A stretch of 63,573 bases of DNA, filler included, from Psammoneis japonica (GCA_008632985.1; 5 parts of 5 records of this genome joined end to end with filler, not necessarily neighbours in it); one strand, 5' to 3'. Positions 99-51,991 are shown, numbered from the whole stretch's first letter. The notes: generated by a model from the letters alone, not told the origin. Program-made: numbers and translations.

Positions 99-1248
99 GG
101 CTGATGTCGCGGCGTCGTGTCGCATCGTATCTTCGGCGGCAGAGGGCGACTGCAAGAGAGACGGTGAAGAGGAGGTGGAGCGAGGTGACTGCTCCTCTTG
201 TTGGGTGGTTGGCGTTGGTTTGCTGAGACGGAATCTTCAAGTCGTGGACGCGCGGTGTCGGTGACGTCACGTACAATAAAATCTTGTCTGCGTGTTTGGG
301 GTGTCATTCAGTCAAACGGGTCAGTCCGGACTGGGGCGCGCAGCGCCCACGCAGGAAGTGCACCGGACTGGTCCGGACTGTGTGGTGGGGGGTGATAAAA
401 TAACTGACATCACATTATGACAGGTGAACCAAGGCATCACAACCCCAACGGCATTAAATTTGTCTTGATGACGATGCTGTCGAGAATCAAGCTTTGAAAT
501 TTTTTGAACAATCTCAGTGAACGGGGGCACAATGATCGTCCCAATGGCAACAGATCATGTCTGCGAGGACGCTCATTCGCTAAATCGCATGTAGCCTCCA
601 TGCGACAACGGAAATTGCGGATTTTTGCATCGAACATCGCGATGTGAAGGTGGTGTGTGCACGGAGCAGTTGTTCGCAGTTGGGCCCGTCGCGGGGAAAG
701 TGCACGTTCGGGCTTCAATCAATTGACTGGGTGGCTCAATCAACAGCTCGCGAGTGCCGGAGCTCTGCTTGGCCATCAGCACAATCAACAGCAGGCGACC
801 CGCCAATGAAGAGGAAAACACAAGGCCAAGGCCACAAGCTGCCTGCCTGAGCGCAGTGGCAAGAAGAAGTTTTGCGACATGACACCAGAGCACACTGTGA
901 CAAGAGGAAGGTGGTGAACCCGTTGAAGAAAAGAGATGGCAAGAGAAAAAAATTGCAATGGATGGCATTGAAAGGCGTGGAAAGGCAACACATCTGTTTT
1001 CTCAAGCACTGCCGTGCCCCCCCATTGTTGCGTCATCTGCGGCGCCCAGTTTGATGGGGCGGTTTCAGAAAGTCAATCATGGCATGTGCAGGTGGGGAAA
1101 ATTCAACCCTGCTGACACTTTTGCACATCATGATGCTAAAAAACACCAGAGGCAACCTGCATTTTTCCTTCCATCTCAAGCAAGTTGATGCCACATGCGC
1201 TGAAGCAACATCAGCACACAACCCGAGGAACAAAGCACAGCGACTCTT

Positions 1249-1642
1249 GACGGGTTCCAGTCCCAGGTGGGACTTTTTGTGACATTTGCCCCATGGAATT
1301 CCATGAGCGAGCTCTGCAGTTCGTACTCCGGTTGATGCATGTGTTTGTCTTCGACATAAAATGAACGGCCAAGTTTGCAGCACATGTGTCTCTGTTCGCA
1401 CTCGAAGCAGTTTTGGACAATGCTCCTGCCCTGTGCCATTCTCAAGACACTCGAGAATGGTGTAGAAGAAAAAAATGTTAAAAGTTGTTGAATGGATCAC
1501 CTGACAATTGTGCCATAAAATGATGCAAAATTTTGCCAAAATCACGTAGAAATGCACGTGCACGACATGCGACGTGATTTTCAAAAAACTGTCGATGTCA
1601 CAGTTCAGTGGTGCGAGGTCCCACCTGGACCTGGAACATGTC
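1249..1642 (+). mobile_element. MITE family A (about 390 bp, 25-bp TIRs, 4-bp TSD TCTT)
   Basis: GACGGGTTCCAGTCCCAGGTGGGAC ... GTCCCACCTGGACCTGGAACATGTC; TCTT at 1245-1248 and 1643-1646; further copies at 34-47 kb. Confidence 0.85.
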
Positions 1643-4372
1643 TCTTTTTAGAGTGGGCAACTGAACTTTTCTTGAAGATCCAAATGATCCCCCATGGCAG
1701 CCATGTTTTCTTTGTGTGTGTGAAGACGACGCAAAAAGGAAATTGCTTTGTGGCATCGGCTTTGTGAAGCATGGTTGATTTTGCAAAATGAGCACACTGG
1801 GAAAAACTCAAATGAAAAATGTTTGGCAGACTCAAGGCTGAAACTCAAATGTTCTTGTTTCTGTGAATGATTGAATTGCAATTTTTGTCCCAATGGCAAT
1901 TTGTTTCTGTCTCTCATTGTGCTTTCAAATTTTCAAAACAACACAACAAGTGAATGGTGACACCATTGTTGTCCCAACAGCAACAGATTTTGTCTTGACG
2001 ATGCTTGCCAGGGGGACAATTCCCCTTGATGCTTGTTCACCAATTGAAAAGGGGGCTCACACTTGCTGGCCAGCAAAGAGTCACACTGGTCAATGAGCAC
2101 CTCCTTCTCCAGATCTTCTCCTCCAGATCTTTTTGCACAGCTCAGTTGACCACACCTTTTTTGTCAAGTCTTTTGAGCTGAATTTTTTGTGCAGCATGGC
2201 TGCCACAACCAAGCTGGCTGGTGCACAGCTTTTTTGCCCCCCCCTGCATTTCCATGGAGCTGAGCAAGTGTGTGCACAACGTGCATCAGGCAGCAACATG
2301 GTCCTGCACAAACACTTTTCCAAACTGTCAAGCACAACATGGTGCTTGGCTGCTGACCAAGAGAGTCATCTCAAGCAGGCACTGCAGGCATGGTGCAGCT
2401 GGCTGCTCTTGCTCTTTGCTTGAGAGACAAGCTGAGAGCATTTGCAAAAAGGCTTGTCACTTGGAGAAGGTTGTTTGCAGACTTGCAGCTGACTCAGAGT
2501 GCAAGAAAATTGTTTTGTTGTTGTTGTCAGTGCTGGCCCTGCTTGCCAGGTGTGTCACTGCCTGGCCTCTGTTTCTGATCAGCAACAGCTTCTTGTTGTG
2601 TTCTTGATGAGAGCTGTTGCACAGGCAGAGTGCCCAGCACTGCACTGCTTTCAATTGTCAATGTGGAGAACAGCCAAGTGTTGGCCAAAACCGCAGAGCA
2701 CATGGGAGGCTGGAGAGCTTTGCTGGAGCATGTGATGTGTTTTTTGCAAGATTTTCTGTGCATTTCTACATGACACGCACTTTTTGCACCACAATCGCGT
2801 GCAATTTTCAAGCTCCCGCACGAGATGTCATCTTTTTTTCATGTCTCATCCACAAATTGCGCACACCGAACCATCCTTGCACCAACATCCACAATGACAA
2901 AGAAAACAAGAATGGTGAAATGGGTCAATGCATCTGCACTCAATGCGATGATGTGGTTGAAATTTTGGTGTTCGCCGTTTGTTGTGTCTTGTGGATGGCC
3001 TTTTGTCTCACGATGTTTTGTGCCTGCCTCTTTTGCTCATCCTCAGATTGCGATGTGGCATTGTTTGAAGTGCAAGGCTCTGATGACTTGACACTTAATC
3101 CAAGCAACAGTGTGTGTCTTTGTGGTGCATCAGTGTTCTTTTTGTGATGCGTTGAATTCACTTTAAGTCGGCGTGGACTGCACTTGTGGGTTGTGCGCAA
3201 ACATCAAACATTGGCGCCAACAAAAGAATGACTCTGCATTCAGTTGTGAGGGCGCATGGGGTTTAAGAAGCCACCAGACGAGTCTAACAGCTAAAATGTT
3301 GTAAAATGGAACAACGCTTTTACAGTGACATCCATGTGTTGTGGCCACTTCACTTCATTCCAAGGTGGAGCCAGTGTCAATGGCGTTGAAACACTGTCAA
3401 CATTTCATTGTCACCTCTGCTTCTGCTTGTCAAACAACTTAATTGCTCTGCATTTGTCAAAGTTTGATGCCAAAATTTCAATGCCAGCGTGCAACTGACT
3501 CAAGACTCCCCACAGGTCGACAAATCAGTCAATCTTTGAAACAGCGGATCGCGCAAAAAATGCATGTGCAAAGTCAGTTCCCCCAATTTTTCACATGAAA
3601 AAAAAAAAGGAGTTAGAATGCCATTCTATTTTGGTGTGAGCTCCTTGCACAACAGAGAATGCAGACATCCTTTCAAAATGGTCAAATCGGATGAAAGAAG
3701 CAGAGAAACAGTGACTCAAAGTCGTTCGGAAAACTGCCGCGCGCAGTTTCCCATCATTTTGAGACCAAAAAATTGACTCCAAAAGAGCTTTCTCCTTTTG
3801 TCCGCACCCTCCAACAAACAAAGAAGGCAGCCGGTCAATGAGAACAAACAGATCTGATGAAAGAAGATGCAAAAAATCGGGGAAAAGCACGGGCTCGGAT
3901 GAGATTTTTTTGTCACACAAAAAGCATGGTGACGGAAAATGGATGGATGCAATGTCACACCCTCGTGCACGAGTGACCCACCTGGGATGAAAACACACCA
4001 TGTGCACTGCCAGGCCAGTGACAACAGCATGGCAATGGCACCATCACAGCACAAAATGCATTTGCTTTGTGCACTCCACTGCAGGAGCAATTTTTCCGGG
4101 TTTCTTTTTGTCGGACGTCATCGTGTGAATTTAATGGCACCACCTGACGTCACCGAATCTGCAAGTTGCCATGAGAACCCACAGGAAATGCACTGTCTTG
4201 CAGCTGCGGGGGCGGACCACAACCTGCTGCAGCCGCAAGCAGAAAGATTTCAGCCCGCACAAAATCTGCATGATTTCTCTGCACCGTTTTGCTTGCGGGC
4301 AAAACCTGACACCTCCCTCTGACAACAAAAAACACATCACACGCATCGTCACAACACAAGCCACAAGAAGTC

Positions 4373-5458
4373 ATGTCATCCATGCAACACATTTGTCATG
4401 CCTGGTGGGCAGCCACAGTGTCACAAGTTGTCATGGGGGCGTTGCAAGAGTTGAGGAAGGAGGCGAGATCTGGTGGCTCTAGCGGCGCTGACGAAAAAGA
4501 AAATGCGAGCGGCACCAGCACATTTCTGCGATCAATGTTGACAGGCCGACCCCGCATCAGACTCTGGATGGACCAGAATCATCTCTTGCAGAAATGACAA
4601 ACCTTGAAGTCGATCTTACGGAGGATGAAAAAGTTGACAAAATCAACAAGGAGAAGGGAGTCACGAATGAGCCCAAGCTTCCAAACTCACTGAAAGTGGA
4701 AAATGAGTCTTTGTTGCATGACATGCTGTTCATCATGCAAACAGCAAAAGCAAATTGGTGTGTCAAGCACATTTCCAAGAAGGCCACCACATCTTCAGTC
4801 TGGCAGCCAATCATGGACCAGTTCTGTGACCCACCGGATGGCCCTGCACGTGGCTGTGCCAAGCCAGATGGTGAGACTGCACACTGCACCTTCCAACAAA
4901 AGTGCTGGAAAATCACAAAAGATTTGGCAAGTCATGCTTTGAAGAAGAAGCAAGAGGACTGCTCCCCCTGTGAGGTCTCTGCATTGGTCATGTGGAAGGA
5001 GCAGCAGGAACTGGTCATGAAAGATGAAGAGACCAAGTCAGAGGCGACAGCTTTGCAGAGGGACAGAGCAGCTGCAAATGCTTCATGTGAAGCAAAACTT
5101 GACCTTGAGCCCCCAGCTCCATTCACAAAGAAGCGCCCAGTCCCAAGTGCAGCTGCCAATCCTTCTGAGAGGCCTGATGGAAAAGTGCCGGGGGGAGCCG
5201 AGGTCGAAGGACCGTGTGCTGGATTTGGAAAAAACCCAAGAAAAGGCAGATGAAGTCTTGAGCAGCATCAAAGCTTTCTTGCCATGCAAGGAAGAGATTG
5301 GAGAGTCAAACAAGCGCAAGAAGAGGAAGCTTCAGCTGGACACAATGGCATCTGTGGCAACAATGATCGCGCAGGGTGGGGATGCGGGTCTCGATGTTTC
5401 CAGGTTTGAAGAGCATTTCAAGCAGCCACACGACAAGTTTTTTGAAGACCAAGCTTGA
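4373..5458 (+). pseudogene. decayed second ORF of a PIF/Harbinger-like element (putative DNA-binding partner); intron 4512-4591
   Basis: Charged, protein-like ORFs 4373-4597, 4594-5253 and 5024-5458 converge on the transposase; phase-consistent intron with a GC donor; partner role inferred from Harbinger two-ORF layout. Confidence 0.5.
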
Positions 5459-5657
5459 AAGAGATTAGATGTTAGATGGCATGATGTTTACAAATTGGGG
5501 TGCACATTTCATTTGGCTGCAGTCACTTGACATGGCTGCTTTGCTGGTGCACTGTTCTTTTGCACATTGTCGACGAGTGCAGTGCATTTGTTTTTTAGCA
5601 CATTGTTGTTCCCAGCCTGTTGCAATGCCACCAGAAGAGCTTGCACACCATGCACAT

Positions 5658-7078
5658 CTAATGCACATTTGAGTGGTTTTGAATTGATGGTGGATTGACA
5701 CCAAATGTGCCGATCGCACCAATCTGGTTGTGGTTGAAGCACGTGCAACAATTTGTGAGCAAAAAAGACACTCGAAGCTGCTCACATGCACGCGGCCTTT
5801 CACAGCACAGCTTGAAAGAAAAGACAAAATATCCTGCAAATTCGAAAGACATTGGATGCAACACCATGGCTCCACTCCACGTGATGCGCACTGCCTTGAG
5901 CCAACAATTTTCGAGCAGCTGAATGGGCGTGAGCGGAGCCAGCCCGTTGTGGCCAGGGTGATGCGCATGAATGACACACTGTTGTTGAGCAAATCCCTGG
6001 CCCGTGTGCACAGCACACAGCATGCCATCTGGAAAGCAGCCTTGCTGAATGTCCAGCAAGTGCTGATTCATGGCCGACAAGTGCTGCAAATCGGTGTCAG
6101 CTCCAACAAACTCAAAAAACACAAAGAGCAACGATGGCGATGAGCAGCCACTTTTTTTTGTAAATGCAAAGCACATCGGTGATGCACAACTGTGTGCTTG
6201 CCTGCAAGCTGAAGCAGGACCCCATGCAATGCTCAAGCCATTTGGAAAGACCATTGATGATGTCTAATTCTGTGAATGTGCTTGTGCCCTGTGCAAACCG
6301 ATCGCTGAATGTTGTCTGCGTCAGGCCGACGCGGTGCATCCACCCAGTCTTCAACTGTCCCTGTCCCTGGAGTGTTTGTTTCAAAAATTGAACAGTCCAC
6401 AAAGCCAAAAATGTTGAACTCTCCTGGTGGGTGAACAAGACCGGGGACGTCGCATGCTTGACCAGTGTCGGGATCAGTCCACTTGCACTGCTGCTTCAGC
6501 TTTCGCTCTGTTGCTCTTGCAAACAAGGGAAAATTGTCAATCCACCTTTCAAGACCTTGTTGTCCAAGTGCACAATCACATCTGTCATCAAGATGCAGCA
6601 AAAACCACTGGCATCCATGCGACCACTGAGTCAAGTCCCTTCCTCCAAAGCAGTGATCCACCAACACAGTGTTGTCAAGTCCAAGTGCAATCTCAGTCAA
6701 AGAAAACAAAAACAATTCCTCACCAGCAAATTGACAATGATGTCCTGGAAAGCATGGCACAAGAACTGTGTCGGGCAGCTCAAATAAATCATGCAAATCT
6801 TGCAAATTCTCCACGTTGAATCGAGTCGTTCGTTCGGCACAGTTGTCAGAGCAATCGTCGATTCGTCGGTGATGTGTTGGATGAAAGTCAGTGGGATGAT
6901 GCTCCTCCTCATGTGTCACATCACCAATTGTCGCATTTGCATCAGCCCAAATCTGAGCCACATGATGATGCACAAAAATGTCGCCCATGTGTGCGCAAGA
7001 GCGCGCCAAACGGATCGTCCGCATCACCAACTTGCTCTGGATCCAACAAGTGCCCATTTTCCTGATTGACAACATCAA
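5658..7078 (-). mobile_element. decayed PIF/Harbinger/ISL2EU-type DDE transposase (DDE_Tnp_4/HARBI1-like)
   Basis: Motifs FNIFGFVDCS, QRSVCTGHKHIH (=YxGYK), VFPNGLSIAWGP, AVRIT/VEWSHG (=VEWxYG) spread over frameshifted frames. Confidence 0.75.
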
Positions 7079-7834
7079 TTCTGGACACGATCGAAAGCAC
7101 AGTGAGAATCACAGACCATTGAATAACTGATTGAACAGAACATGTCCAGAAAACCTCTGTTCTCCTTGGCACAGACACTCCTCGCTCGCGTTGAGAGACC
7201 CACCCCTCATGTTTCTGTTGGTGAACCGCCGCGGCAATTTGTGGCGGTGTCCATGGTGGAACAGCCGTGGTTGTTTTGGCATGATGTGTAGATCAAGAGT
7301 ACAACAACAATACGATTGCAAAAGTGTTCTTTACCTTGGTGGACGAGAAGCCGTAACCACATTGTCAAAGCATCAAAGCTGTGCCGTGCGGGTTGAGCGG
7401 AGCCGCTTCGGGCAGCGAATCGTGATTGAGTCGCGTGTTGAAACACGAACGGATGGGAACCCTCCACCCATGACCCGTACGGGTCGGTAAGAACACTCTA
7501 CTAGAGTCTACTGCCAGCTCCATCCAGTTGCAGCAGATCATGAGAATGACCCACAGCGGTCATTTATTTCGTACTGTAACATCTTGGATCAAAGTGTCCA
7601 GGATGTCAATCATAAAATGCCGTAAGGTCGGTAAGCTTTTTCCATTTAACAAATCGTTTCTTTTTTATTTAAGACTGACATTTCTGCTCTTCTTCCAGAA
7701 ACGCCATGGTTTGGCAAAACGCGATCCTTCGTCGCGACCTACCTGACGCGACGATCCGACGACACCAGATGGCTTCTTCCAGTTTCTCTTCTGCCAGAAG
7801 ATACTGTATTCTCCCACAACCACAACTCGTTCCA

Positions 7835-9108
7835 ATGTTGCTGTATCCTTCTCTTCTCATTGCGTCCTGGCTCTCGACGGGAGCCTGGGCAGCACCCATG
7901 GCGTGTCCTTCGGACCCAGCCATTGTAGGATACACAGACCTGAAGACACTCACGGTCGACATTGGTGATTTCAACGGCACAGACGGAGAGTTCATTCTTT
8001 GTCCCCAAACGACCTTTGTCGCAAACTGCATTAATGGCTCGGACTTGTTTTTGCAGGGAAACGGTACAAAAGTTCTTTGTGGTCCGAATGGTAGTGTCGA
8101 CGATAACTGTACCATTGCCACCGATCGCAACTCGTGTCCTCTTGTGTTTGTGCAGACACGGCCAACAATGTGTTGGTCAAGGGCATTACAGTCGATCCAA
8201 CTGCTGGTGGCTTGACAGAAGCCATGAGGAGTCAGATTGCTGCGGTGACTCCAAACAGTACTTCCACCTTTGAAGATTGTATTTGGAAGGTTCGTTTTTT
8301 GCTGTTTGTCTTGGACCTTGGTTGAGTGTGTAATTTTGTCAATTACTCAGCTGCGACATTTGTCCTCGACTATAGAATGTTATCATGGCTCCTAGTCCTT
8401 TCAGGTCCATTATACGTGTGTCCCAAAGTAGCTTGACGTTGATTTCAAACACCTTCCAGGTAAGAAACTCAACACCTATCTATTGAGTATTTCCTTGGCA
8501 TTCATATGAAGAACGAGGCTTAAGTCCTGTATGTTATTTTCAGACCAACACTGCAAAGTCTCTTGTGGAAGTCTCGACCGGAACCCTTAGCGTGACTAGG
8601 CTGTATTCCAATTGTAACATTTTAGAAGAGGTAGGTATCAGAACGAGAGTTGCGAATTTTGCTAGTGTATGCCATTTCAACTCTAACATCCGTATGATCC
8701 TTAGTCTCCAATCCAAACCTTTGAACCAGATGGTGGTCCCTTGTCCGTGACGGACTCTTGCTTTGTGGAGAATGCCTACAGCTTTGGAGCATCTATGCGG
8801 ACCGCCGTATTTCAAATGTGACTCAAACAAACAACTATATTCGGGATTCGGTTCCCTCGGAACCAAACGAAGGTGCAATCCCTTGCAATGGTGTCTACCA
8901 GAGTACGCTCGAGAACTCAAAGGGTTTTACGTGCGACAACTTTACCGCCGTTGCCTGTGCTTTTGGAAGCTCTTCCTTTATTACGTGCCCCACCACTTCT
9001 CCTACCGTTGCTCCTACTACACCCACGGATGCACCGAGCGCGGGATACCAACCCGCCAAGAATGGCGGTAACCTTGTGGCATTGGACTTGTGGTTGTCGC
9101 TGTCATGA
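7835..9108 (+). CDS. secreted Cys-rich surface protein with Pro/Thr tail; introns about 8290-8375, 8460-8543, 8631-8704; two apparent frameshifts (about 8150, 8790)
   Basis: Signal peptide MLLYPSLLIASWLSTGAWA; LCPQTTF and CGPNGSVDDNCTI motifs; GT-AG introns join open exons; PTTSPTVAPT tail. Confidence 0.6.
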
Positions 9109-9620
9109 TGTGGTGAAGAAAGGAAAGGAGACAGTCTTCAGAGTCATGGTTGGAGAGACGCAAATGCTTTAGTTGAAAGTTCAGCTACGTTAAAATTTAC
9201 GTTAAGACAGACATACCAATTGTGACAATGTTGCAACTGCCAACGTAGCCTCTTTGAAAAGGAAGGAATTGAAAAGGTCACATATCATCCCGAGGGGCAT
9301 ATCCATCACTTGAACCGGGCACATAGCGATTGGGCTTTGCTGCCCATTTTTCATCTACTCCCTACAGTACGGTACTAGGCTCCAAGCTGCTCACTGGACA
9401 GGGAAGGTACACAACGCCCAGGTTGTAACACTTAATTACCGCAATTGCAACCCTTCCAAGACACGGCAGATGCCCCCCCCCCCCCTCCCCTCGTAAGGTA
9501 CAATGGTACACATGGAAGCTATGACAAGGATCCACAACGATTTCTATTGTTTGCATCTTTGTCTGTAGTGCTATGCTTCCGGTGGTTCCTTTTGAGACCC
9601 GCGGAGGAAAACTCAACAAG

Positions 9621-10463
9621 CTACAGATTACTCTTGCCGGGAGATTCTGCTTGGCCAATTACCAGTGCTGTCCCATCCTTGTTGTACAAGGCGGCAAAAG
9701 GGTGTTCCTTGTGCACGTAAACAGACAGCGTTTGATTCAGTTCTGCGGGCGCCAAGTACTGAACCGATACTTTGTAATTCTCATAGGAATACCCTTGAAT
9801 GTGCATTCCCTGTATAAGTAAGTCCACCAGTGCAGCATGATCTACATGGGAATTGTTGCAATGCTGAGGTCCAATAAGAACATCAAATATGTGTTGCATC
9901 ATGTCACTCTGTGATGGAACGGTTAGTTTGGTCACTTGAGGAAGCATCATCACGTCGTTTCGAGGTGTTGCAGGAAACAGTTCGGTTCGTTCCTGTTCTG
10001 TCACTTTAAGCAATTCACCGGTCGTTGTGTCCGTTCTTACATAGATTCTCGTAGCAGCTGCTAGCAATTCATCTTGAAAGCAAAGTATATTGCCAAAGGT
10101 GATGGATGTGTTTCCCAAATTCTCCACCCACATTTCAGACACGACTGGTGTTGAATTTTCTTCAAGCCGCTTTTTCATATTCTCAAGTGGAAATGTTATA
10201 CAAGCTTGAGATACACAAAACATGTCTGAGTTTTGGTTCGTCAAAAATCGGGCTGCACCCATGGCATGTAAATGATGATCTGCCAATCGCAAACACGATG
10301 CCGTTCGTATGGAAGATTCAAGCAGGTCTGTCGATAAGTTCACGGGGGCAGTCAGGATTGGGAAGGATGAAGAATCTGACATGAGGAAACGTCGTGATGC
10401 AATCAGTTGACGATGACCAAAAGTAGCAAGACGCAGTAGTGTTGTGGCAGCCGTCATCGTCAT
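9621..10463 (-). CDS. double-hotdog thioesterase-like protein, probably organelle-targeted
   Basis: Long intronless ORF; WVENLGNTSITF and NSHVDHAALVD...VQYLAPA motifs; Arg/Ser/Ala-rich presequence-like N-terminus from ATG 10463. Confidence 0.6.
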   Translation of the reverse strand: MTMTAATTLLRLATFGHRQLIASRRFLMSDSSSFPILTAPVNLSTDLLESSIRTASCLRLADHHLHAMGAARFLTNQNSDMFCVSQACITFPLENMKKRLEENSTPVVSEMWVENLGNTSITFGNILCFQDELLAAATRIYVRTDTTTGELLKVTEQERTELFPATPRNDVMMLPQVTKLTVPSQSDMMQHIFDVLIGPQHCNNSHVDHAALVDLLIQGMHIQGYSYENYKVSVQYLAPAELNQTLSVYVHKEHPFAALYNKDGTALVIGQAESPGKSNL

Positions 10464-29367: not shown

Positions 29368-29374
29368 AACATGA

Positions 29375-40344: not shown

Positions 40345-41859
40345 TTGTGGAGTTGGACTCATCTCCCACCAACAAAAAGCCAGCAATGTTGGCATTTGTC
40401 TCTGTGGCCCTGGCTCATTCCTGCTTCAACTGCTCCAGTTTCTTCTCTGTTTTTGCAACACCTGTGTTGTTGAAGGTCTTCAGGATTGTCCACCCCCTGT
40501 CAACAGATGGTGCAGAAAGGTGGGGCTCAATCAAATGCCGTGCAGATGATGAAATCACTCCAAACATGCTTCCTCCTGATTTTGTCACAAACATCAGAGT
40601 TGATGGATTTGAATGTCTGGCAACGCAACACCCCCAGTGTGCTCAGCATTTTGTTGCCATCATTGATCATGTGTGAAAGGCTCCATGATTTTGTGCACAG
40701 AATCTGAAAATTCACAATGACAACCATCCATGTTGCCTGATCCAGTGTCAGCATTTGTGAGTTCAACCCAAAACAGGTGTGGCACTTTGATGAGCACATT
40801 CCTTGAGCATCGCAACTCTCTGTTGCTCCAGCATCATGAGTGCTTTCCTCACCCCTGCATGCTTTGACATGGCTGCTCCATTTGGGCTCACTTCTCGATC
40901 CAACAAAGTTGGCCAAAAACCCCAGGATTGTCCAAAAACCCCAGGATCATCCTTCAACACCCGTTGCTCTGCTGCTGAGCATCATCATGTGGTGCATGGT
41001 TTCTGTCCTTTCCTTTCCTTCCTTCAGCTGTTCAGCTGTGTTTGCCTTCCTCCAGAGTTCAAGGTGGGACATGCTCTTGCTGCATGTTCATTGTTTGTCT
41101 TGCCATCATTCTGAGTGGAGTGCAGTCCCTTGTGATCTTGGGCTGGGCCACAGCCTCTGCATCTCTAGCTTGTTGGTGCTCTTCCAGGTCTTTTGTCAAG
41201 TGAACAATCAACAAGAACATCATTGTGTTGGGCATGCTGCTGTTTGTTGGACGGTGTTTTTTGTGCTTTGTCAAGAGATCCTGCACAGAGTCTAAAATGT
41301 GCCATTTGTGTTGGAGAAGCATCCCAAATCCAAGCCATCATGAGTGGCAATGAGAGCCTTCCTTGAGGACAGATCTGTGCTCTGCAGCAGTCTAATTTGA
41401 AATGGCTCACATTTCTCATGCTTCGCTGCAACATTTTGACCAGCCTCAGAGCACCCCAAGCACTCGCACATTCATCAAGCCCTGCACATTTGAAAAGATT
41501 CAAAAGCTGCTTGTTGGCCTGTGTGCCCACAAATGTGCATGGCATGAACCGCTGCAACAACACACATGATTGTCATTTTTTTGTTCAACCAGACATTTTG
41601 CCTTGCAATGCAATCTGCATGTGTCAAGATCAACATTGTTCAAAAATCAACAAACTTGTTCATTCGTTGTTGGATCTTTCTTTTTTCCATTGATTTCAAA
41701 AACTTGAAAAATGTGTCTTCATTTCCATTGTTTTGTCTGTCTTCTGGTTGTGGAAAATTCAATCATTTTATTTGCACATCTTTGCACATTCAGCCAAGTG
41801 CAAAAACCAACATCATGATGTGCAAGCAAAGCAGGCTTTGGTCAATTTATGAAAACCAG

Positions 41860-42470
41860 TGGTGGATGAGTGTTGCAAAGCTCCTCTGGTGCAGTTGTGC
41901 CCCTCCCCCCCCCAGTCACTTCGCTCACACCAGAGTGAGAGTTAAAATGTCCAGCTCCAGAGTGAAGCAAGGAAGAACACCCCCCCTGCTGGCAACAGCA
42001 CTCACTCACCCAACAACTGCAGCCTGAGGTTGGGGGGCATTGCCAGTCTCTGGCGGCACCCAGGAAACACTGTGAGAATGGTGGTTGAGTGTTGCAAGGC
42101 TCACCTGGTGCAGTTGTGCCCCCCCAGTCACTTCATCCATGCCAAGTGAGAGTTGAAATTCCCAACTCCAGCATGAAAAAACACCCTGCCTGATGCCGCC
42201 AACCAACACAAAAACAACTGCAAGCACTGAGTTCACTGAGGGTCTCCTTTGGTGGAACCCAGGGAACACTTTGAGAGTGGTCGCAGAGTGTTGTGAGGTC
42301 CACCCAGCACAGTTGTTTGTGCCCCCCAGCCACTTCACCCAAGCCAGGATGAGAGTTGAAATTCCCAGCTCCAGAGCTGCTGTGGGCCAAGGGTCTCTGG
42401 TGGAACCCAGGGAACATGGGGTGAGAATGGTGGCTGAGAGTTGCAAAGCTCACCCATGGCACAGCTGTGC
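41860..42470. repeat. about 3.3 degenerate tandem units of 150-220 bp
   Basis: GAGTGTTGCAARGCTC...CCCCCAGTCACTTC...GAGAGTTGAAATTCCCAGCTCCAG recurs at about 41861, 42080, 42278 and 42428. Confidence 0.75.
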
Positions 42471-45177
42471 TGGCCTTCCCAAATTGTTTTTAACTGCTGG
42501 GGCCAAGCACTGCTGTTGATTGACAACAGATGCTGTGGATTGAAGATGACGTGTTTGTGTTGTGTGCATGATGCACACACACCATGTTGTCACCAGCACA
42601 TGTTGTTTCCAATGAACAGTGCGGTGTGTTCACGCATGTCATCCACAACAGCAGCAGCAACAACACATCAAAGCCACAAGTTGACTGTTGTCAATGGTGC
42701 TCAAGAATGAGAAAGATTGAAGTCTGCATCAAAATCATTCAAACCATGGAGATGAGGGGACAGGGGATGCTGTCAAAACTCTCAAGTTGTGCTGTTGCTG
42801 TCACCAACCCCTGGAGCAATGTTGACAGCCAACTCCATTGCTGCCATGATGACACACCTGGTTTCCATTGCAACATGCCATGCACTCTCACAGTTGCCTG
42901 CATGACAAGGCTGGTTGGATGGCCCTGGCTGGAACTGCTTCCCATGGTTTGCACTGGATGTCAACTGCACATCACCCACCAATGTCAGAACAAGAGCAGT
43001 TGAAAAGATGATTTTGCACAAAGCAGACAGGCAGACTCAGACCACCAAAGACAATGTCTCACTTTCTTGTGTGGATGACTTCCATTGGTCAATTTGCAGT
43101 CAAATTTCAAAACCAAGGAAAATTCCATCCATCCCTGCTGTGTTCATGGCCTTGTCTGGGAAAATGCCACTGGCTGTTTTGGAATTTGCCAAGCTGTGGA
43201 AAGAGTGAGACGTGGCACACTGTCATCCATGACTTCACTGTAAAATCTCCCAAGACCATCCTGTTCACTTTGAACCAACTCAACAACAAGAAGAAAGCAA
43301 ATGTTTCACAGAGTGCCAAATTCATTTTTCCTTCTGCAAGTCATGAGGACTTGAGAAGCCAAATTCAAAAGTTGCTGTTGCTTCAAGAGTGCCCCTTTTC
43401 CCAATGCTTGTGGCAAAAGCAATTGTCTCGTGGACCCACTGGAATGAGCCGAGCCATTTTCAAAGCCAAGGCTCAGCAAATGCTCAAAGACAAGCCAAGT
43501 CATGGTGTTGAGTTGCTTCTTGTCTTTTGACTTCATCGTGCCTTGGCCAATGGTGTTTCCGTTGCTGCAGCCATGATGGACTTGTGTGATGAAGCAGACC
43601 AAGTTCATGATTGCATCAAGGAGAAACTAAAAAAAAGTTAAAAAAGTCGTCCTTGTTGTGGAGTGGCTCTTGAAGAAGCTCAAAATGCTTTTTGAGCTCT
43701 CACCGGGCTTGATTTGTGCCGTTGCCCATCCGTTTTGCTTGTTTTGGCATCATGGGGTGAGTTCATTTGTCATGATCAAGGCAAACTTGCTGCTGGTGGA
43801 GCTTGGTCAGTCCATCTCATGGTGTGACATGGGCTCTCATTGACCAAGTCAAGCAAGTGGCCAAACACTTTGGATCGAAAATGACAGTCAATGATGCAAT
43901 TGATGCCTGCACTTCATGTGCTGTGTCGCGGCAATTGAGGCACCACCAAGAAATGATTGGTGCTCTTCAACAAGAAGACAAGAAACCAGCTCTGCCCAAG
44001 GACGCCCTGGATCATGCCAATGTTGCCATTCCAGCTCATTTGGCAGGTGGGGTCTTGTTGCCTGGTGAGTCCATGGGCAACAACGTTGGTGCATTTGTGG
44101 ATGTCGTGCACCATCAAGAGCCAAGCAACCAACAACAACAAGCAACACTTCTTGTGCAACAAGCCGGCACCTTGAGCAGGTTCTTCACAAGGTCTTGTGC
44201 AAAATCAAAAGGACTCCAGCTCTGCTGCTTTTCTGTGTGTTTGCCAAATTTTGTTTGTCCGCAATTCCTTTTGACATTGCACAGCATTTGTTTCAAAGTG
44301 CAAATGCTGGTGCTTCGTTTGTCATGTCCAACACTGGGCAAGGAGGTTTGCCTGCTGCAAAGCTGCATGTTTGGTGGGTGGACGTCTGACTGAGTGTCAG
44401 CAGTGAGGAAAAAAGACAAAAACTCCTCAGCCACAATTGCACTCAAGTGCCTCATGACAGGATTTGAACAAAATTTCAGTTTGTCACACACAATTGTGTG
44501 TGCTCTCAGTTCCACGCGCAATGAGCAACGCAGTTTGCTTTTGAGCCACATGGTTCACAAACATCACGACACCAGTCTTTTGGCTCCTGCAGCGGTCTCT
44601 GCACGGAGACTCATCTGCTGTTTGGACAGCAGCGAGGAGCCATTGTTTTCTTCCACCCCAGTTGTCTTCATTTTCTGTTAGATTGGCAGTCTCGCTCATG
44701 ATCAACCATTGAGCATTCATCATCGTCATCAAGATTTTTCAATGACGCTGTCATTGCAACATGTGTCCTTGGCACTGGTTCCAGGCACGTGGGCGGATTC
44801 ACACACCCAACACGCTGGGTTGTCATTTTTCTGTGGAAAATCCCACTGAAATCTCCCACGCAGTTCTACATGCGAGCACTGCAATGGTGGAAGTGCATTC
44901 CAAGATTTCTCATTGCTGAACACACATGTGCATCCAACGGACATTTGTCAAGACAGGGGTTCCAACGGACATTTGTCAAGTCAGGAATTCTGGCATTCAC
45001 CAACCATTGAGATTCCAGATTCCCTGCATTGGTTCTGCACTCAGCCACCAACTGCTGGGATTCCGGATTCCCCACAGCGGATTCTACCCTGGTTGGCAGA
45101 CAGACCAATCCATCCGCACGCGTTCACGTGCACACCACATGACCGTCAGACTCTGGCCCTGCTTCAAGCATGCCACC

Positions 45178-47640
45178 ATGGCTCTCACCAGGCAGCAACA
45201 AACTGATGGCTTTGAGCACACCTCAGGCACTGTTCTGAACCAAGCTACAGACAGTCTTTTGTGCTCTGCCCTCAACCTCGATGGAACCGATTCCTGCCAA
45301 GATCTCTTCACTTTTACTCCAACGCAACTGGATGCCCTGGTTTACAACAACAGCACCAATCAAACGCCTTTGCCACATCGTCACAAAGCACAGATGGCTG
45401 CATTGATTGGTTTGCACACAGCAAAAGCGCACGACGGTGCTGATGTTGGCAACGACCCCACCTTGTTCACACATGAAGAGTTTGCTGACTGTCATCTTAG
45501 TCCTGAGTGCGCAGCGTCTCTCTCCATGGGCACAGTGCCATCTGCTCCCACTCCTGGTTCATTGTCCCCAAAACCATGTGACTCCATGCGTGACTTCAAA
45601 CAAGGCATCAAACGCGATCCACTTGCCTTTGCAACTCTCAAGTCCAACAAGCAGTTGCACACGTGGAACACCTCCATTCTCTTGCAGGCCCATTCTCAGG
45701 ACGTCGATTGCATCCTCAACCCTCAGCACAAGCCTTCCATGAATGGGGACAAGGTTTTGTTCAAGGAACAACAGAAGCACATGTTTGCCATCTTCGATCG
45801 CATTTTGCAGAATGACAAAGGCAAGGCCCTCGTTTGTGAGCATGTTGACTCACATGATGCACAGCAAGTGCACAAGGAACTTTCTGAGTGCTCATCACTC
45901 ACATCGTCAACTCTTCTCACCTGCGTCACCACCACCCATCTTGGTGATGGCACCTGGAAGGGCTCTGCCCAAGCCTTCATGCTTCACTGGCAAGACCAAC
46001 TCCGCAAGTGTGTGAAGCTCTTGTCCCAAAGACGGGTCGATTCTCTGAAGGACAGAAGCGTGTCATGCTGAAGAACACCGTCCACCCTGTCAAAGAACTT
46101 TGTTCCATCAAGAGCCAAGCTGATCAGCATCACACACAGAATGGCAAGAGCCTCACCTGTGAACAATGTTGTGTGCTGCTGCTCTCTGTGGCTGCACAGT
46201 GCTGCAGCACATTTGTCCCCAAGACAGCCTCCCGTGCACCACGCCATGCCATCTGTGCCCATTGCCTGGCACCCAACAACCCTGATGATGACGTGTTCTT
46301 CAACATTGACAGTGGCGTTGATGTCATTCAGGCTCATGCCAGACGCGTTCCAGCTCTGGGTGGGACCTCGCACTGCTGAACTGTGACATCGACAGTTTTT
46401 TGGATCGCATCGCATGTCACGCACGTAGAAAGGCACATGATTTTTTTGAAATTTTGGGTCATTTTGTGGTGCACTTGTTGAGCGATCCGTCCAACAACTT
46501 TTGACATTTTTTGTTACAGCACAATTCTACAATGTCTTAAAAATCGCACAGGGCAGGCGTGTTTGCAACAACGTCAAGTGGTGAGAGGCACAATTGCACC
46601 ATAAACTTGGTCGCATGTTTGATGTTGAAGACAAACACATGCATTGATTAAATTCTTGCACTGCGGAGCTTGCACGTAGAATTCTGTGGGCCCAATGTCA
46701 CACAGAGTCCCACCCAGGACTGGAACCCATCTCTTGCTCAGTCCTTCACCAAGGAACAGCGGCGCTGCATTCCGCCGGATCACCAGCACATCTGGGACAG
46801 CAGCTCTAGGTGGGACCTTGCACTGCTGAACTGTGACATCGATGGTTTTTTGGATCGCGTTGCATGTCGCGCACGTAGAAAGGCACATGATTTTTTTGAA
46901 ATTTTGGGTCATTTTGTGGCACGCTTGTTGAGCGATCCGTCCAACAACTTTTGACATTTTTTGTTACAGCGCAATTCTACAATGTCTTAAAAATTGCACA
47001 GGGCAGGCGTGTTTGCAAAAACGTCAAGTGGCAAGAGGCACAATTGCACCACAAACTTGGTCGTGTGTTTGATGTTGAAGACAAATGCATCCATTGGTTA
47101 AATTCTTGTGCTGCAGAGCTCGCACGTAGAATTCTGTGGGCCCAATGTCACACGGAGTCCCACCCAGGACTGGAACCCATCTCGTGCTCCCTCCCTCACC
47201 AAGGAACAGCGGCGCTGCATTCTGCCAGATCACCAGCGCATCTGGGACAGCCTGCCTCAGTCCACCAAAGCCATCATTCTTGGATCGCACACTCCCTGTT
47301 CCAGCAACTGCCACTTGTCGGAAGCTGTCGGCCTCCACGACCTTCATCTTGGAAGCAATGGTGGTGTTGATTTGCTTGCCAACACTTGTGATGTTGCCTC
47401 GGCCGCAGCACCACCCACCGATGCAAGCACACGGCATCACGACAGACACGGGGTTGAAAAGTGAAAAAACAGTGCAGTGGCTGCTCAAACAACACAAAGC
47501 TCACCTGTGAATGGGAACAGAGCCACAGAGACCCAAATGAAGGCTCTCATGGTTGTTCCCCAATGTTCCCACACCATCTGCCTTCTGCAGGCAGGATGCG
47601 AAAGAAATCATTCCAAATCGGCAATCGGCGCCACCAAGTC
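45178..47640 (+). mobile_element. CoDi-type (diatom Ty1/Copia) gag region, decayed and interrupted by MITE A
   Basis: DFKQGIKRD, LFKEQQKHMFAIF, LQNDKGKALV, DAQQVHKEL and LGDGTWKGSAQAFMLHWQDQLR resemble diatom Copia Gag; 3' limit approximate. Confidence 0.8.
46342..47250 (-). mobile_element. MITE A (46342-46731) plus a 450-bp tandem duplication (46351-46800 / 46801-47250) giving a second copy
   Basis: Exact 450-bp period covering the MITE and about 70 bp of gag. Confidence 0.88.
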
Positions 47641-48460
47641 AAAAACAAAGCTCAAATCGACACCCAACTAACATGAACGCTCCCTCTGGATGCTGACAGC
47701 AACAAAGAGCACCAATTGTAAGTTGCTCTTGCCGCACTTGGGATGTGTCATCTGCTGCACCGGGCGGCGGAACCAACAAGCACGTGACATGGCACATGGC
47801 GACAGCAACAGGAGGTGAGAAGGGAAGAAGGAGATTGTGACGCACTGCCTTTTCCATTTTCAGGGACATGGTCCTCACCTGGTGAATGGAAATGCAAGAA
47901 ATGAAAGGCGTCGCTGTCAGAACAGGAACTGCTTGCCACGCGAGTGTCATGGCCTTTTGTCCTCCGTTTCTGTTTGCACTGATGTGGATGAATCCCATGC
48001 AGTTGTTGTCGCTCATTTGTCCGTTGAATGATGTGGTGCAACACTGAAACCCATTCAATGTTTCCAATGCATCTTTTTGCTGTTTTTTTCAATGCAAGCA
48101 GTGAGAAAGCACACACACATCCAACTGACCTGAAATTTTTATGTGCGACATTAAAGATTGAACAGGTGCATAAAAATTTTGTTGAAACCGGCAAAAAAAG
48201 GAGCTCTTAACTTGTGGCACAATTCAATGTCCAAAAACACAGTGCATCCTCAAAAACGTTGACATGGGTGCTGATGATTTTGCTGGGGGGGCGCTGTGTT
48301 TGCTTGTTCCCCCCCCCCATGAAATTCAACCTCATTTAAGCACCTGTGACATCCCCCCCCCCCCCCCCCAAAAAACTCCATGGAAGTGTCTGTCGTCATT
48401 GCGCGCCACATTTTTTCACTTTTTTCTGGCATGCTCCTTGCAAGAATGACCCTCATTGTT

Positions 48461-51400
48461 GTTGCAGGTGTGCACTTCATGCTTCATCGACACCTTTCCT
48501 TTCCAACAGGGGTTTGTCAAGAGCCCCTTTGCACTCTCATTGCTGTGCCTGCGCTTGAAACAATGGGGCCAAAAAGCCAGTTGAGTCCTTCGCGACTGAA
48601 GAAGTTGAAGCAAAGTGCGTCTAGGCCGACGCCCCACCCCTTGAACAAGCACACAAAAGAGGGTGAAGTGGAGTGACGTAGAAAGCAAAAGGAAATTGAC
48701 GAAGCTGACAAATTCAAATTCAGGTGCAATCAACACAAGAACAGCAAGAAGGTTCGTGAAAAAGTCACAACTCGAGTTGACTTTGGAAAAAATGTGCAAA
48801 CGGCGTGTCAAAGGACCGGGTTGCAAGAAGGGTCATGATGACACGTGCCACAAGAATCCAAATGCTTCCAATTGCAAGCCGCCAGAGAAAAGTGCAGTTC
48901 AGGTTTTGAAAGAGGTGCAGCCAGATTTCCTTCTAGCACTGCCACAAGATTGCAGAAACAATCTTGTTGCGAGGAGCCTTTTGGAGAGATCTGTTTTTTC
49001 TGTGTGGCAGAGAAGTGCAGAAAGTGCACAAGAAGCATTTTTCAACATGTCGGAGTCCTTGACAGATTCCAATCCATCCATCAACAACAATGAATCAGTT
49101 GGGAATGCTCCCAGCAGCGTTGAATCCAAGGACGCATTGAAGCCATTGCCACACAAGAAAATGACTGCGTCGCATTTAAAAAAAGTGATGCCTGCCGTGA
49201 TGTCAACGTGGAGCCCCAGCAAAAAAGAGCAACTTGCTCAAGACAACATAAAAAACTCTGCAGAAGTGTCTGTCATCGTTGCGCACCACATTTTTTCACT
49301 TTTTTCTGGCGTGCTCCTTGTGAGAACGACCCTCATTGTCGACGTGTTCCAGTCCCAGGTGATGCACAAAACAACAATCGATTTTGAACATGAGTTGTGC
49401 ATCCTTTAGTGTGTGGAGCATTTTCATGTAAAATGCTTGAGCGGATTGGCTTTTGTGGGCGTCCAGAGCACAAACATTTGAACATTTTTTTGTTCGGCAT
49501 TCAAGTCCTCATGGAACATGCATCACAAACTTCCTCAGTGGACTCAACACTGACTGCACATCAGTGCATTTTATGCTGAGATTTCTCTGCAGGTAGAAAA
49601 CCTGCCAAGCAGCATTGCAGGAAGACACATTTGGGCAACATCCAAACAATGGCAACAATTTCGCCGAAAATCATCTGTTGTGTTGCGACTCCATTGTCGC
49701 AATGAAAAACACACATGGCACAATGACAATGATGTTGCAACACTCACACGAGTCTTGTCAGTGTTGCAAAACATTTGTGTTTGGACAAATCTGTGCGTTT
49801 GGTGGTGAAAGTTCAATCGCAAGTCAGAGACCGCGCGAAAATCACGCAAATGTCATTTTTGTGCATGATTTGGGTCATGTGCAGCTGGAACACGTCTGTC
49901 GTTGCAGGTGTGCACTTCACACTTCATCGACACCTTTCCTTTCCAACAGGGGTTTGTCAAGAGCCCCTTTGCACTCTCATTGCTGTGCCTGCGCAAGTGC
50001 GTTGAGGCCGACGCCCCACCCCTTGAACAAGCACACAAAAGAGGGTGAAGCGGAGCAACGTAGAAAGCAAAAGGAAATTGACGAAGCTGACAAATTCAAA
50101 TTCATGTGCAATCAACACAAGAACAGCAAGAAGGTTCGTGAAAAAGTCACAACTCGAGTTGACTTTGGAACAAAAACGTGCAAACGGTGTGTCAAAGGAC
50201 CAGGTTGCAAGAAGGGTCATGATGACACGTGCCACAAGAATCCAAATGCTTCCAATTGCAAGCCACCGGAGAAAAGTGCAGTTCAGGTTTTGAAAGAGGT
50301 GCAGCCAGATTTCCTTCTAGCACTGCCACAAGATTGCAGAAACAATCTTGTTGCAAGGAGCCTTTTGGAGAGATCTGTTTTTTCTGTGTGGCAGAGAAGT
50401 GCAGAAAGTGCACAAGAAGCATTTTTCAACATGTCGGAGTCCTTGACAGATTCTAATCCATCCATCAACAACAATGAATCAGCTGGGAATGCTCCCAGCA
50501 GCGTTGAATCCAAGGACGCATTGAAGCCATTGCCACACAAGAAAATGACTGCGTCGCATTTAAAAAAAGTGATGCCTGCCGTGATGTCAACGTGGAGCCC
50601 CAGCAAAAAAGAGCAACTTGCTCAAGACAACACAAAAAACTCCGTAGAAGTGTCTTTCGTCATTGCGCACCACATTTTTCACTTTTTTCTGGCGCGCTCC
50701 TTGTGAGAACGACCCTCATTGTCGACGTGTTCCAGTCCCAGGTGATGCACAAAACGACAATCAATTTTGAACATAAATTGTGCATCCTTTAGTGTGTGGA
50801 GCATTTTCATGTAAAATGCTTGAGCGGATTGGCTTTTGTGGGCGTCTGGAGCACAAACATTTAAACATTTTTTTGTTTGGCATTCAAGTCCTCATGGAAC
50901 ATGCATCACAAACTTCCTCAGTCGTCAGTGCATTTTATGCTGAGATTTCTCTGCAGGTAGAAAACCTGCCAAGCAGCATTGCAGGAAGACACATTTGGCA
51001 ACATCCAAACAACGGCAACAATTTTGCCGAAAATCATCCGTTGTGTTGCGACTCCATTGTCGCAATGAAAAACACAGATGGCACAATGACAATGATGTTG
51101 CAACACTCACACGAGTCTTGTTGGTGTTGCAAAACATTTGTGTTTGGACAAATCCATGCTTTTGGTGGTGAAAGTTTGATCGCAAGTCAGAGACCGTGCA
51201 AAAATCGCGCAAATGTTGTTTTTGTGCATGATTTGGGTCATGTGCAGCTGGAACACGTCTGTCGTTGCAGGTGTGCACTTCACACTTCGTCGACACCTTT
51301 CCTTTCCAACAGGGGTTTGTCAAGAGCCCCCTTTGCACTCTCATTGCTGTGCCTGCGCTTGAAACAATGGGGCCAAAAAGCCAGTCGAGTCCTTTGCAAC

Positions 51401-51991
51401 TGAAGAAGTTGAAGCAAAGTGCGTTGAGGCCGACGCCCCACCCCTTGAACAAGCACACAAAAGAGGGTGAAGCAGAGCGACACAGAAAGCAAAAGGAAAT
51501 TGATGAAGCCAACAAATTCAAATTCAGGTGCAATCGACACAAGAACAGCAAGAAGGTTCGTGAAAAAGTCACAACTTGAGTTGACTTTGGAACAAAAACG
51601 TGCAAATGGCGTGTCAAAGGACCAGGTCACAAGAAGGGTCACGATGACACGCACCATGAGAATCCAAATGCTTCCGATTGCAAGCCGCTGGAGAAAAGTG
51701 CAACTCAGGTTTTTGAAAGAGGCACAGCCAGATTTCCTTCCAGCACTGCCACAAGATTGCAGAGACAATCTTGTCGCAAGGAGCCTTTTGGAGAGATCTT
51801 TTTTTCTGTGCAGCAGAGAAGTGCAGAAAGTGCACAAGAAGCATTTTTCAACATGTCGGAGTCTTCAACAGACTCCATTCCATCCATCAACAACAATGAA
51901 TCAGCTGGGAATGCTCCCAGCAGCATTGAATCCAAGGACGCATTGAAGCCATTGCCGCACAAGAAAATGACTGCGTCGCATTTAAAAAAAG
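48461..51991 (+). repeat. ~1.4-kb tandem triplication of a decayed element gene (units start at 48461, 49901 and 51263)
   Basis: GTTGCAGGTGTGCACTTCA starts each unit; encodes CKRCVKGPGCKKGHDDTCHKN (Cys/His motif); third unit cut by the contig end. Confidence 0.9.

Follow-up and report, generated by a model that had tools for sequence, protein, structure and literature searches.

Why should so large a part of one stretch of diatom DNA be almost devoid of the dinucleotide TA? The stretch analysed here, referred to below as the window, comprises 63,573 bases from Psammoneis japonica (GCA_008632985.1). It consists of five contigs, each of about 11.5–13.2 kb (contig limits 1–13208, 13309–26435, 26536–39421, 39522–51991 and 52092–63573), separated by artificial spacers of the form N44-TTAATTAATTAA-N44. 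Within it, sharply bounded, gene-free domains have lost approximately 90–95% of their TpA, which has been regained as TpG and CpA in equal measure, and the genes have been spared. In the available text of a recent preprint, a TpA-restricted A>G/T>C hypermutation is described for giant-virus and virophage DNA integrated in the genome of Bigelowiella natans (Mettrop et al., 2026; bioRxiv 10.64898/2026.01.13.699255). The footprint reported here is of the same kind; the B. natans system is the one published precedent, from an unrelated alga. Taken as a whole, the favoured reading is of a TpA-directed A:T-to-G:C process with a flank preference, carried out by a DNA adenine deaminase in silenced or inserted DNA, to which a rough probability of 0.7 is given. 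That a real TpA-directed mutational process has been at work is highly probable in its own right; the adenine deaminase as its agent, proposed by analogy, is a tentative assignment a little short of an even chance.

Composition and borders of the TA-poor domains

The TA-poor DNA amounts to 41,988 bp (66% of the bases, spacers excluded) and is distributed over four contigs as follows, with dinucleotide content given as the ratio of observed to expected (O/E).

440–7289, contig 1: TA-poor domain; TA O/E 0.08, CG O/E 0.52; matched by contigs of the public DNA run X1 at depth 65–300
16654–26435, contig 2: TA-poor domain; TA O/E 0.04, CG O/E 0.27; without a recognised repeat family or protein relic
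26536–39421, contig 3: TA-poor throughout; TA O/E 0.02, CG O/E 0.65; satellite arrays, an inverted duplication, copies of a miniature inverted-repeat transposable element (MITE) and a Copia relic
39522–51991, contig 4: TA-poor throughout; TA O/E 0.07, CG O/E 0.21 (39522–44900) and 0.57 (44901–51991)

Counted over 41,983 bp (440–7290, 16660–26435 and all of contigs 3 and 4), this DNA contains 148 TA (O/E 0.05), with CA and TG raised to O/E 1.68 and 1.70 and CG lowered to 0.46. The other 20,751 bp hold 857 TA (O/E 0.59), with CG at 0.97 and CA and TG at 1.17 and 1.16. AA has an O/E of 1.39 in the TA-poor DNA against 1.16 elsewhere in the window, AG stands at 0.91 against 0.92, and TC, at 0.99, is not depleted. 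TA-free gaps longer than 300 bp number 46 in the window; TA is absent for 1118 bp between 1649 and 2767 and for 1195 bp between 31251 and 32446, and the chance of a single 1118-bp TA-free gap at the gene-side TA frequency is 3e-21. When the cluster thresholds given in the available text of the B. natans preprint (bioRxiv 10.64898/2026.01.13.699255) are applied, 39 of the 64 one-kb windows qualify, with consecutive runs of 6 (1001–7000), 17 (17001–34000) and 13 (35001–48000).

The edges of the domains are sharp to about 10 bp. At the right edge in contig 1, TA is found at 7124 and 7289 and then at 7300, 7311, 7332 and onward. At the left edge in contig 2, TA occurs about every 20 bp until 16645 and 16653, the next lies at 17644, and the density of CG falls at the same point. 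No element terminus was seen at either of these two edges. The left edge in contig 1, near 440–600, is less sharp than the other two; bases 1–439 contain 6 TA and dense CpG (CG O/E 0.91 in 1–1000).

The encoded residues follow the same division. Tyr makes up 2.25% of the 3828 residues in the 8 gene-side open reading frames (ORFs) of at least 200 aa, against 0.12% of the 4848 residues in 20 TA-poor ORFs, in which Cys reaches 5.8% and His 5.0%. The TA-poor DNA has 64 TAA and 39 TAG against 811 TGA and, because TAA and TAG are nearly absent, long spurious open frames are abundant (137 ORFs of at least 110 aa in 42 kb). An earlier reading, made from the sequence only, had described scarce TA with abundant TG and CA in DNA of four contigs, TA-free stretches at 1651–2766 and 31253–32445, and adjoining genes ordinary in both TA and Tyr; each of these descriptions was borne out, and both stretches are among the 46 long gaps.

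Direction of the change

A change from TA to TG and CA is supported by four independent lines of evidence: mass balance, in-silico conversion, the polarity of Tyr codons and the ordinary TA content of related elements. Set against gene-side O/E, the 35,630 bp of non-satellite TA-poor DNA are short of 1264 TA and 1109 CG and have gained 1246 TG and 1218 CA. When the gene DNA of the window is converted in silico (92% of TA to TG/CA, with 53% CG decay), the correlation between its 4-mer spectrum and that of the TA-poor DNA climbs from 0.72 to 0.94; with the same CG decay, conversion of TA to TT/AA reaches 0.87 and to TC/GA 0.84.

The remaining two lines of evidence concern relics of a retrotransposon polyprotein and their relatives.

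31443–32211 (−): Copia-type relic, C-terminal (RNase H side) part of the polyprotein; zero TA
45157–46373 (+): Copia-type relic, Gag/N-terminal part of the polyprotein; TA O/E 0.06; resumes at 47159–47512 beyond MITE copies

A 383-aa open frame at 44920–46071 matches an intact 1889-aa RVT_2 polyprotein, P0123 (PF07727), with an E-value of 3e-33, and 120 relatives of P0123 match 31443–32211 (−), 45157–46373 (+) and 47159–47512 (+). This homology to an RVT_2-bearing polyprotein identifies the relics as Ty1/copia-type. No pair of long terminal repeats was found for them, and the reverse transcriptase core is absent from the window.

Tyr polarity was assessed at those 18 codons of the relics in which Tyr is shared by 60% or more of at least 20 intact relatives. 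These codons now read Cys seven times (TGY), His three times (CAC) and Phe four times, with a single Tyr, Met, Asp and Pro making up the rest. For other conserved residues, the relics keep the residue at 161 of 281 codons, and conserved Arg reads His three times and Cys twice, the counterpart expected of CpG decay. In 79 environmental loci encoding Copia relatives the TA O/E has a median of 0.71 and a minimum of 0.33, against 0.00, 0.06 and 0.00 in the relics; the seed peptides of this metagenome scan contain Tyr, so hypermutated copies are missed and the comparison serves as a control for intact relatives only. The sequence-only reading had singled out intact copies equally free of TA as evidence that would tell against it. 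None such appears among these relatives in other organisms, and active copies of this genome lie outside that comparison. The case for A:T>G:C transitions at TpA that yield both TpG and CpA is thus indirect but convergent, combining the mass balance, the passage of Tyr to Cys or His, and an AA, AG and TC content that is undepleted or unchanged.

The repeat copies within the window differ almost only by transitions. Pairs that are 92–95% alike rise to 98–99% when rewritten in purine/pyrimidine code, and pairs that are 84–85% alike rise to 93–97%. Because the TG and CA outcomes, which are gained equally, are not clustered along the DNA (runs test z 0.6; local skew SD 1.18 against 1.35 in gene DNA), there is no trace of long single-strand-processive events, or such a trace has been overwritten. 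Two further tests were uninformative: the column profile of the satellite (243 units) is unable to polarise TG/CA sites, and a search for fossil (TA)n found mixed TG/CA runs about as often (51) as dinucleotide shuffles produce them (50.8). Biased gene conversion was rejected as a source of the pattern, as AA and TT rise and TA alone falls.

A flank rule for TpA loss

The TA that survives is not a random sample of what is lost. There are 139 residual TA in the non-satellite TA-poor DNA, 138 of them with both flanks inside the counted stretch. Classified by flanking purine (R) or pyrimidine (Y), 4 are RTAY, 65 are RTAR or YTAY (half-sites) and 69 are YTAR. The corresponding counts are 271/435/151 in gene DNA (chi2 92, p 1e-20) and 6452/9997/3744 in the 79 Copia loci (chi2 109, p 2e-24). 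With about 465 RTAY and 259 YTAR expected, survival is 0.01 for RTAY, 0.09 for half-sites and 0.27 for YTAR. The pattern persists in the 90 residual TA outside repeat families and in each of the four domains.

The products obey the same rule. R-CA-R and Y-TG-Y together gained 997, R-TG-R and Y-CA-Y 279, and the matching losses are 682 for RTAR plus YTAY and 615 for RCGR plus YCGY. In every domain the two product classes stand in a ratio of 1.44–1.67, whereas gene DNA gives 1.10 and the Copia loci give 0.89 (Fisher p 2e-8). On the assumption that CpG decay strikes both strands alike, nearly every R-TA-R would have become R-CA-R. The three Tyr>His codons are all preceded by G and the seven Tyr>Cys codons by T, A, C, G, C, A and G, although these numbers are small.

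These counts are most simply read as a preference, acting on each strand, for changing A to G in 5'-TAY; seen from the opposite strand, the same event is T to C in 5'-RTA. A palindromic RTAY would then offer two good half-sites and be erased completely. RTAR and YTAY, with one good half-site, would be erased nearly completely and almost always to R-CA-R or Y-TG-Y, and YTAR, with none, would decay slowly. A hand-fitted additive per-strand model reproduces ten context classes within about two-fold, ATAG excepted. The flank rule is new here; in the main text of the B. natans preprint, so far as it is available, the words 'flanking', 'context' and 'trinucleotide' do not occur.

CpG decay in the same domains

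CG is also depleted across the TA-poor domains, with O/E values of 0.21–0.65. This CpG decay is a second, independent process that accounts for about half of the TG/CA excess and has removed about half of the CpG. The two losses are separable because their O/E values are uncorrelated (r = 0.13 across 39 one-kb windows); contig 3 combines a TA O/E of 0.02 with a CG O/E of 0.65, and contig 2 combines 0.04 with 0.27. The recent divergence of repeat copies is dominated by CpG decay, and for this reason the domains are probably cytosine-methylated.

Survival of CpG in the 35,630 bp of non-satellite DNA also depends on the flanks, at 0.83 for RCGY, 0.42 for RCGR/YCGY and 0.33 for YCGR, the reverse of the order for TA. 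GCGC is enriched 1.96-fold in the non-satellite TA-poor DNA. The CpG order may reflect either a flank preference of methylation or deamination, or a second mutation at R-CA-Y and R-TG-Y (formerly RTAY) that makes new CpG.

Nature of the affected DNA

Besides the Copia relics, the TA-poor DNA contains the following repeats.

26536–27988 (+): 23-bp satellite array, located with Tandem Repeats Finder (TRF); AT-rich (GC 32–34%) and TA-free
29377–29664, 29927–31096 (+), 32802–34791, 36826–37491, 38499–38697 and 38888–39421 (opposite orientation): further 23-bp satellite arrays (TRF)
1240–1655 (+): MITE-like element of about 400 bp with terminal inverted repeats (TIRs), partly converted, 7 TA left
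37630–38040 (−), 38105–38500 (+), 38690–38900 (+, partial), 46330–46740 (−) and 46790–47260 (−): other copies of the ~400-bp TIR element
48457–51991 (+): unit of about 1.4 kb in about 2.5 tandem copies, 92–95% alike in four letters and 98–99% in purine/pyrimidine code
27985–29667, with its other arm at 34507–36188: inverted duplication of 1.7 kb, 94% alike

The seven satellite arrays all lie in contig 3. The ~400-bp TIR family, noted at 883–1764 and 46330–47260, has a summed word depth of 10,619–47,954 in run X1 against about 60, which implies hundreds of copies. Its six copies in the window keep 2–7 TA each and, being less converted than the DNA around them, are probably younger insertions. 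Among 46 variable pyrimidine–purine sites in the five full copies, TA, CA and TG all occur at three, TA and CA at four and TA and TG at one, and CG-derived patterns outnumber these. Two tandem copies sit between the parts of the Copia relic at 45157–46373 and 47159–47512.

No transposon domain was found by Pfam in 359 TA-poor ORFs of at least 60 aa, which gave low-complexity or sub-threshold matches only. The set consisted of 108 ORFs of at least 110 aa (the 137 mentioned above less 29 lying mainly in satellite arrays) and 251 ORFs of 60–109 aa (at most 30% satellite). This negative proved insensitive, because the homology search later found the Copia relics. For most of contigs 1 and 2 (about 16 kb TA-poor) the Pfam ORF scans found no ancestry and no viral DNA was seen, and a plus-strand self-search of these contigs in purine/pyrimidine code revealed no hidden large repeats. 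The sequence-only reading had listed DNA transposons, retrotransposons, MITEs and satellite as affected. Satellite, a MITE-like TIR family and Copia-type retrotransposon relics are indeed present; an autonomous DNA transposon was not found in the TA-poor DNA, and that part of the list was not confirmed.

That reading had also proposed that A:T is converted to G:C at TpA on both strands of repetitive DNA. A DNA-level conversion with equal TpG and CpA, limited to non-genic DNA, is upheld by the present analysis. The description 'repeat-targeted' was not supported, given the sharp edges and the affected stretches at single-copy depth. Parts of the TA-poor DNA of contig 1 have a depth of 65–94 in run X1 against 47–64 in genes, a depth count that old copies less than 90% alike would escape. 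Because stretches near single-copy depth are affected, present-day repetitiveness does not define the affected DNA, and the target looks like a domain or an insert instead.

Reproduction of the sequence in run X1

The evidence from run X1 consists of contigs, not reads. One X1 contig of 1612 nt covers 1613–3225 with 12 differences, and another of 1201 nt covers 3897–5097 with 16 differences. The TA-poor DNA is covered to a depth of 55–65, like the genes (62.5). Because X1 contigs reproduce the TA-free sequence at gene-like depth, it is not a private assembly error. Of 164 positions that differ between X1 and the window 40 are listed, and one listed position gives TA. Among the 35 listed differences, 21 set CG against TG/CA and a further five are doublets with CA opposed to TG. 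The differences number 12/1612 and 16/1201 in TA-poor DNA, compared with 0/3736 in the gene part (9473–13208). They could be alleles or near-identical copies, and they suggest that the TA-poor DNA currently mutates faster or is more heterozygous.

Gene-bearing DNA of the window

The control DNA that retains its TA comprises three regions.

7290–13208, contig 1: gene-bearing; MgtE-domain and TPR genes; TA O/E 0.41–0.71 per 1-kb window; spliced in run X2
13309–16653, contig 2: gene-bearing; TIR-domain ORF at 13309–15884 (−); TA ordinary
52092–63573, contig 5: ordinary throughout; PPR and amidase genes

The best named relatives of the amidase ORF (61618–62763) are from Seminavis, Cylindrotheca, Nitzschia, Amphora and other diatoms, with 49–60% identity, which puts the source of the window within the diatoms, as the sequence-only reading had it. 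In ordinary gene DNA at 54811–56850 (−) lies a 679-aa open frame without a Pfam family at E ≤ 0.01. The 858-aa open frame at 13309–15884 (−), which reaches the contig end, has two stretches of TIR domain (here the protein domain; PF13676, E 6e-24). A TA-poor domain begins some 770 bp away from it, and it is possibly an immune-type protein. No tRNA or Rfam family was found anywhere in the window.

Contigs of run X2, which is from the same sample as X1 and listed as 'DNA?', skip GT..AG introns at 8287–8374, 8456–8541, 8628–8703 and 11664–11753 (region 7876–13208) and a CT..AC intron at 12992–13102, giving orientation and splice sites for three genes. Run X2 behaves as RNA, because its contigs skip introns. 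It gives no cover over most of the TA-poor DNA of contig 1 and was not used as evidence.

Proposed mechanism and alternative explanations

The pattern would be explained by A:T-to-G:C transitions at TpA, made in the DNA itself after insertion and on either strand. The enzyme may be a TadA/ADAT2-like adenine deaminase, of the HxE-PCxxC type, directed to silenced or inserted DNA. The inosine it makes would be read as G at the next replication, and repetition over generations would lead to saturation. A T before the target A is a hallmark of the TadA/ADAT family. A DNA adenine deaminase is favoured because the B. natans precedent, the only experimental one, proposes an ADAT2-like protein as its agent (bioRxiv 10.64898/2026.01.13.699255), because T precedes the target A here, and because the U-A-C-G at which bacterial TadA edits, in the available text of PMC10027721, fits TAY. 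The TadA/ADAT-like candidate of the sequence-only reading is therefore plausible, with some support from the TAY flank rule.

The process could equally be written from the other strand. 5-Formyluracil mispairs with G, and we know of no 5-hydroxymethyluracil (5hmU) in diatoms. A thymine dioxygenase of the TET/JBP type, oxidising T in 5'-R-T-A-3' of silenced DNA to 5hmU and 5-formyluracil, would produce T→C by such mispairing; it is a rival on an equal footing, since T>C on one strand is indistinguishable from A>G on the other, and yet an unlikely one. A dinoflagellate enzyme does make 5hmU that silences transposable elements (PMC11572971, as far as its text is available), but it prefers TA and TC, and TC is undepleted here; the word 'diatom' does not occur in the available text of that source. 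Error-prone patch repair by a Pol-eta-like polymerase recruited to repeat DNA, the other candidate of the sequence-only reading, has TA>TG as one half of its WA>WG signature. That signature takes both AA and TA to AG and TG, whereas AA is enriched here and AG unchanged, and the near-total erasure of RTAY with a half-site rule resembles site recognition and not polymerase error; this candidate is disfavoured and has very little probability left. Hyper-editing of element transcripts by an ADAR-like enzyme, with the A-to-I changes fixed by reverse transcription, would suit the two relics that are retroelements and the preference of such enzymes for U before the edited A (quoted in the available text of bioRxiv 10.64898/2026.01.13.699255). 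Editing of this type acts on transcribed double-stranded RNA with a 5' U and a 3' G preferred. Satellite, MITE and unique DNA, which have no RNA passage, are converted alike here, both strands are struck equally within one tract, and the preference at +1 is for Y and not the G of the ADAR2 hot spot UAG (PMC10661471, available text), so that RNA editing is scarcely credible.

Two explanations would do without a mutational process altogether. The DNA might never have been rich in TA, having been born or selected TA-free as odd foreign DNA or through avoidance of a TA-cutting nuclease, and most of contigs 1 and 2 indeed has no identifiable ancestor. The relics and repeats argue otherwise: 10 of the 18 conserved Tyr codons are now Cys or His and Tyr remains once; intact relatives are ordinary in TA; satellite, MITE, retroelement and unique DNA are all alike within common sharp borders; MITE copies are half-converted (2–7 TA left, with TA, CA and TG alternating at one site); and the mass balance closes. 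This explanation is largely refuted. An artefact of sequencing, base-calling or assembly, such as the misreading of a modified base at TpA, called as G or C, gains some room from run X1, whose library type is not on record and which is perhaps the assembly's own data. It is most improbable all the same, as independently built X1 contigs give the same letters at a depth of 55–65 in TA-poor DNA and genes, the inferred protein is altered as predicted, the change ends within about 10 bp at domain edges, and copies of one repeat differ in outcome between TG and CA.

Several observations weigh against a TpA-directed deaminase process as set out here. The four Phe and three other residues at the 18 Tyr codons are not explained by TA>TG/CA. 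In the 5761 columns of repeat pairs with at least 92% identity, 13 of the 312 mismatches set TA against TG/CA and 116 set CG against TG/CA. Of 54 adjacent double mismatches 38 are CA against TG, for which the ancestor could be TA or CG; such doublets fit one ancestral site struck on opposite strands. Majority-rule triplets give TA>CA/TG seven times and the reverse three times, in small numbers and with the branches of outlier copies unpolarised. Site-by-site polarity is thin in the window because the TpA process is saturated, and the expected counts were derived from substitutes, gene DNA and foreign Copia loci, in place of the true ancestors. The TAY rule does not match fungal mRNA editing of the ADAT type, which in the literature available to us prefers A or G at +1. 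Run X1 may be the window's own assembly data. Finally, the footprint here is read from assembled sequence, whereas the B. natans mutations were caught in real time.

A wider form of the deaminase hypothesis can be formulated, in which diatoms would carry a site-reading DNA editor that recognises the half-site 5'-TAY/RTA (full site RTAY), is guided to inserted or silenced DNA and converts A:T to G:C there until TpA is exhausted. It would be the same as the Bigelowiella system, an old genome defence of the stramenopiles, alveolates and rhizarians (SAR), and would shape most non-genic DNA of this diatom. This extension is doubtful.

Comparison with known systems

The closest likeness is to B. natans, where, in the available text of the preprint, mutation-accumulation lines acquired de novo A>G/T>C mutations in their integrated viral DNA, confined to TpA and arising some 1000-fold faster than background (bioRxiv 10.64898/2026.01.13.699255). 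Both systems have TpA-only A>G/T>C changes giving TpG and CpA, spare host genes and leave a long-term footprint. They differ in that B. natans is a chlorarachniophyte (rhizarian) with viral inserts, whereas the present host is a diatom (stramenopile) in which retroelement relics, MITEs, satellite and unidentifiable DNA are affected. Near-total erasure over 66% of the window, strong CpG decay and the RTAY/TAY rule further set it apart. As regards confinement to foreign or mobile DNA, the genes are spared and Copia, MITE and satellite DNA are affected, and about 16 kb of contigs 1 and 2 is without an identified origin. The sequence-only reading had stated that no description of such a process in diatoms was known. 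Literature searches found none for diatoms, and 'diatom' does not occur in the available text of the B. natans preprint, which in 2026 did report this signature for that alga.

Repeat-induced point mutation (RIP) of Neurospora and other fungi likewise places dense transitions on both strands of non-genic or mobile DNA, destroys coding capacity and is defence-like. RIP, however, changes C>T at CpA and so makes TpA, whereas the process described here destroys it (TpA O/E 0.05, CpA 1.68). RIP depends on sequence duplication (homology) and on the sexual cycle; as to duplication, both repeats and the contig 1 stretches at depth 65–94 are affected here.

TadA, ADAT2-3 and TadA-derived editors share with the present process an A>I change read as G and the need for T or U before the A, and U-A-C-G matches T-A-Y. 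Their natural substrates are tRNA and mRNA loops, and natural activity on chromosomal DNA is no more than a proposal, made in the B. natans preprint. No printed source was found in the literature for a 'YAC' preference of TadA-derived editors, which was not used. The 5hmU of dinoflagellates, made by TET/JBP enzymes, resembles the present case in that the T of TA is modified, with transposable elements silenced as a result, in an alga of the SAR/alveolate realm; according to the available text (PMC11572971) it differs in being an epigenetic mark not shown to be mutagenic, and in also preferring TC. Deamination of 5-methylcytosine at CpG is active in the same domains (116 of 312 repeat-copy mismatches; 21 of 35 listed X1 differences), but it is unable to remove TA, and how strongly it acts bears little relation to the loss of TA (r = 0.13).

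Significance

Diatoms are major primary producers with transposon-rich genomes. If the reading given here is true, they disable mobile DNA, and non-genic DNA of other kinds, through a mutational chemistry that mirrors fungal RIP, and possess an enzyme system that naturally turns A:T into G:C within chromosomes. The order of loss, RTAY before half-sites before YTAR, is a testable prediction and a biochemical handle for the candidate enzyme. There would also be consequences for the way in which such genomes are read. Open frames that are rich in Cys and His, free of Tyr and poor in stop codons may be over-called as genes by gene finders; the process would help to explain failed repeat annotation, as in the absence of Pfam transposon domains from 359 ORFs despite the presence of Copia relics; and estimates of element age and mutation spectra would be biased.

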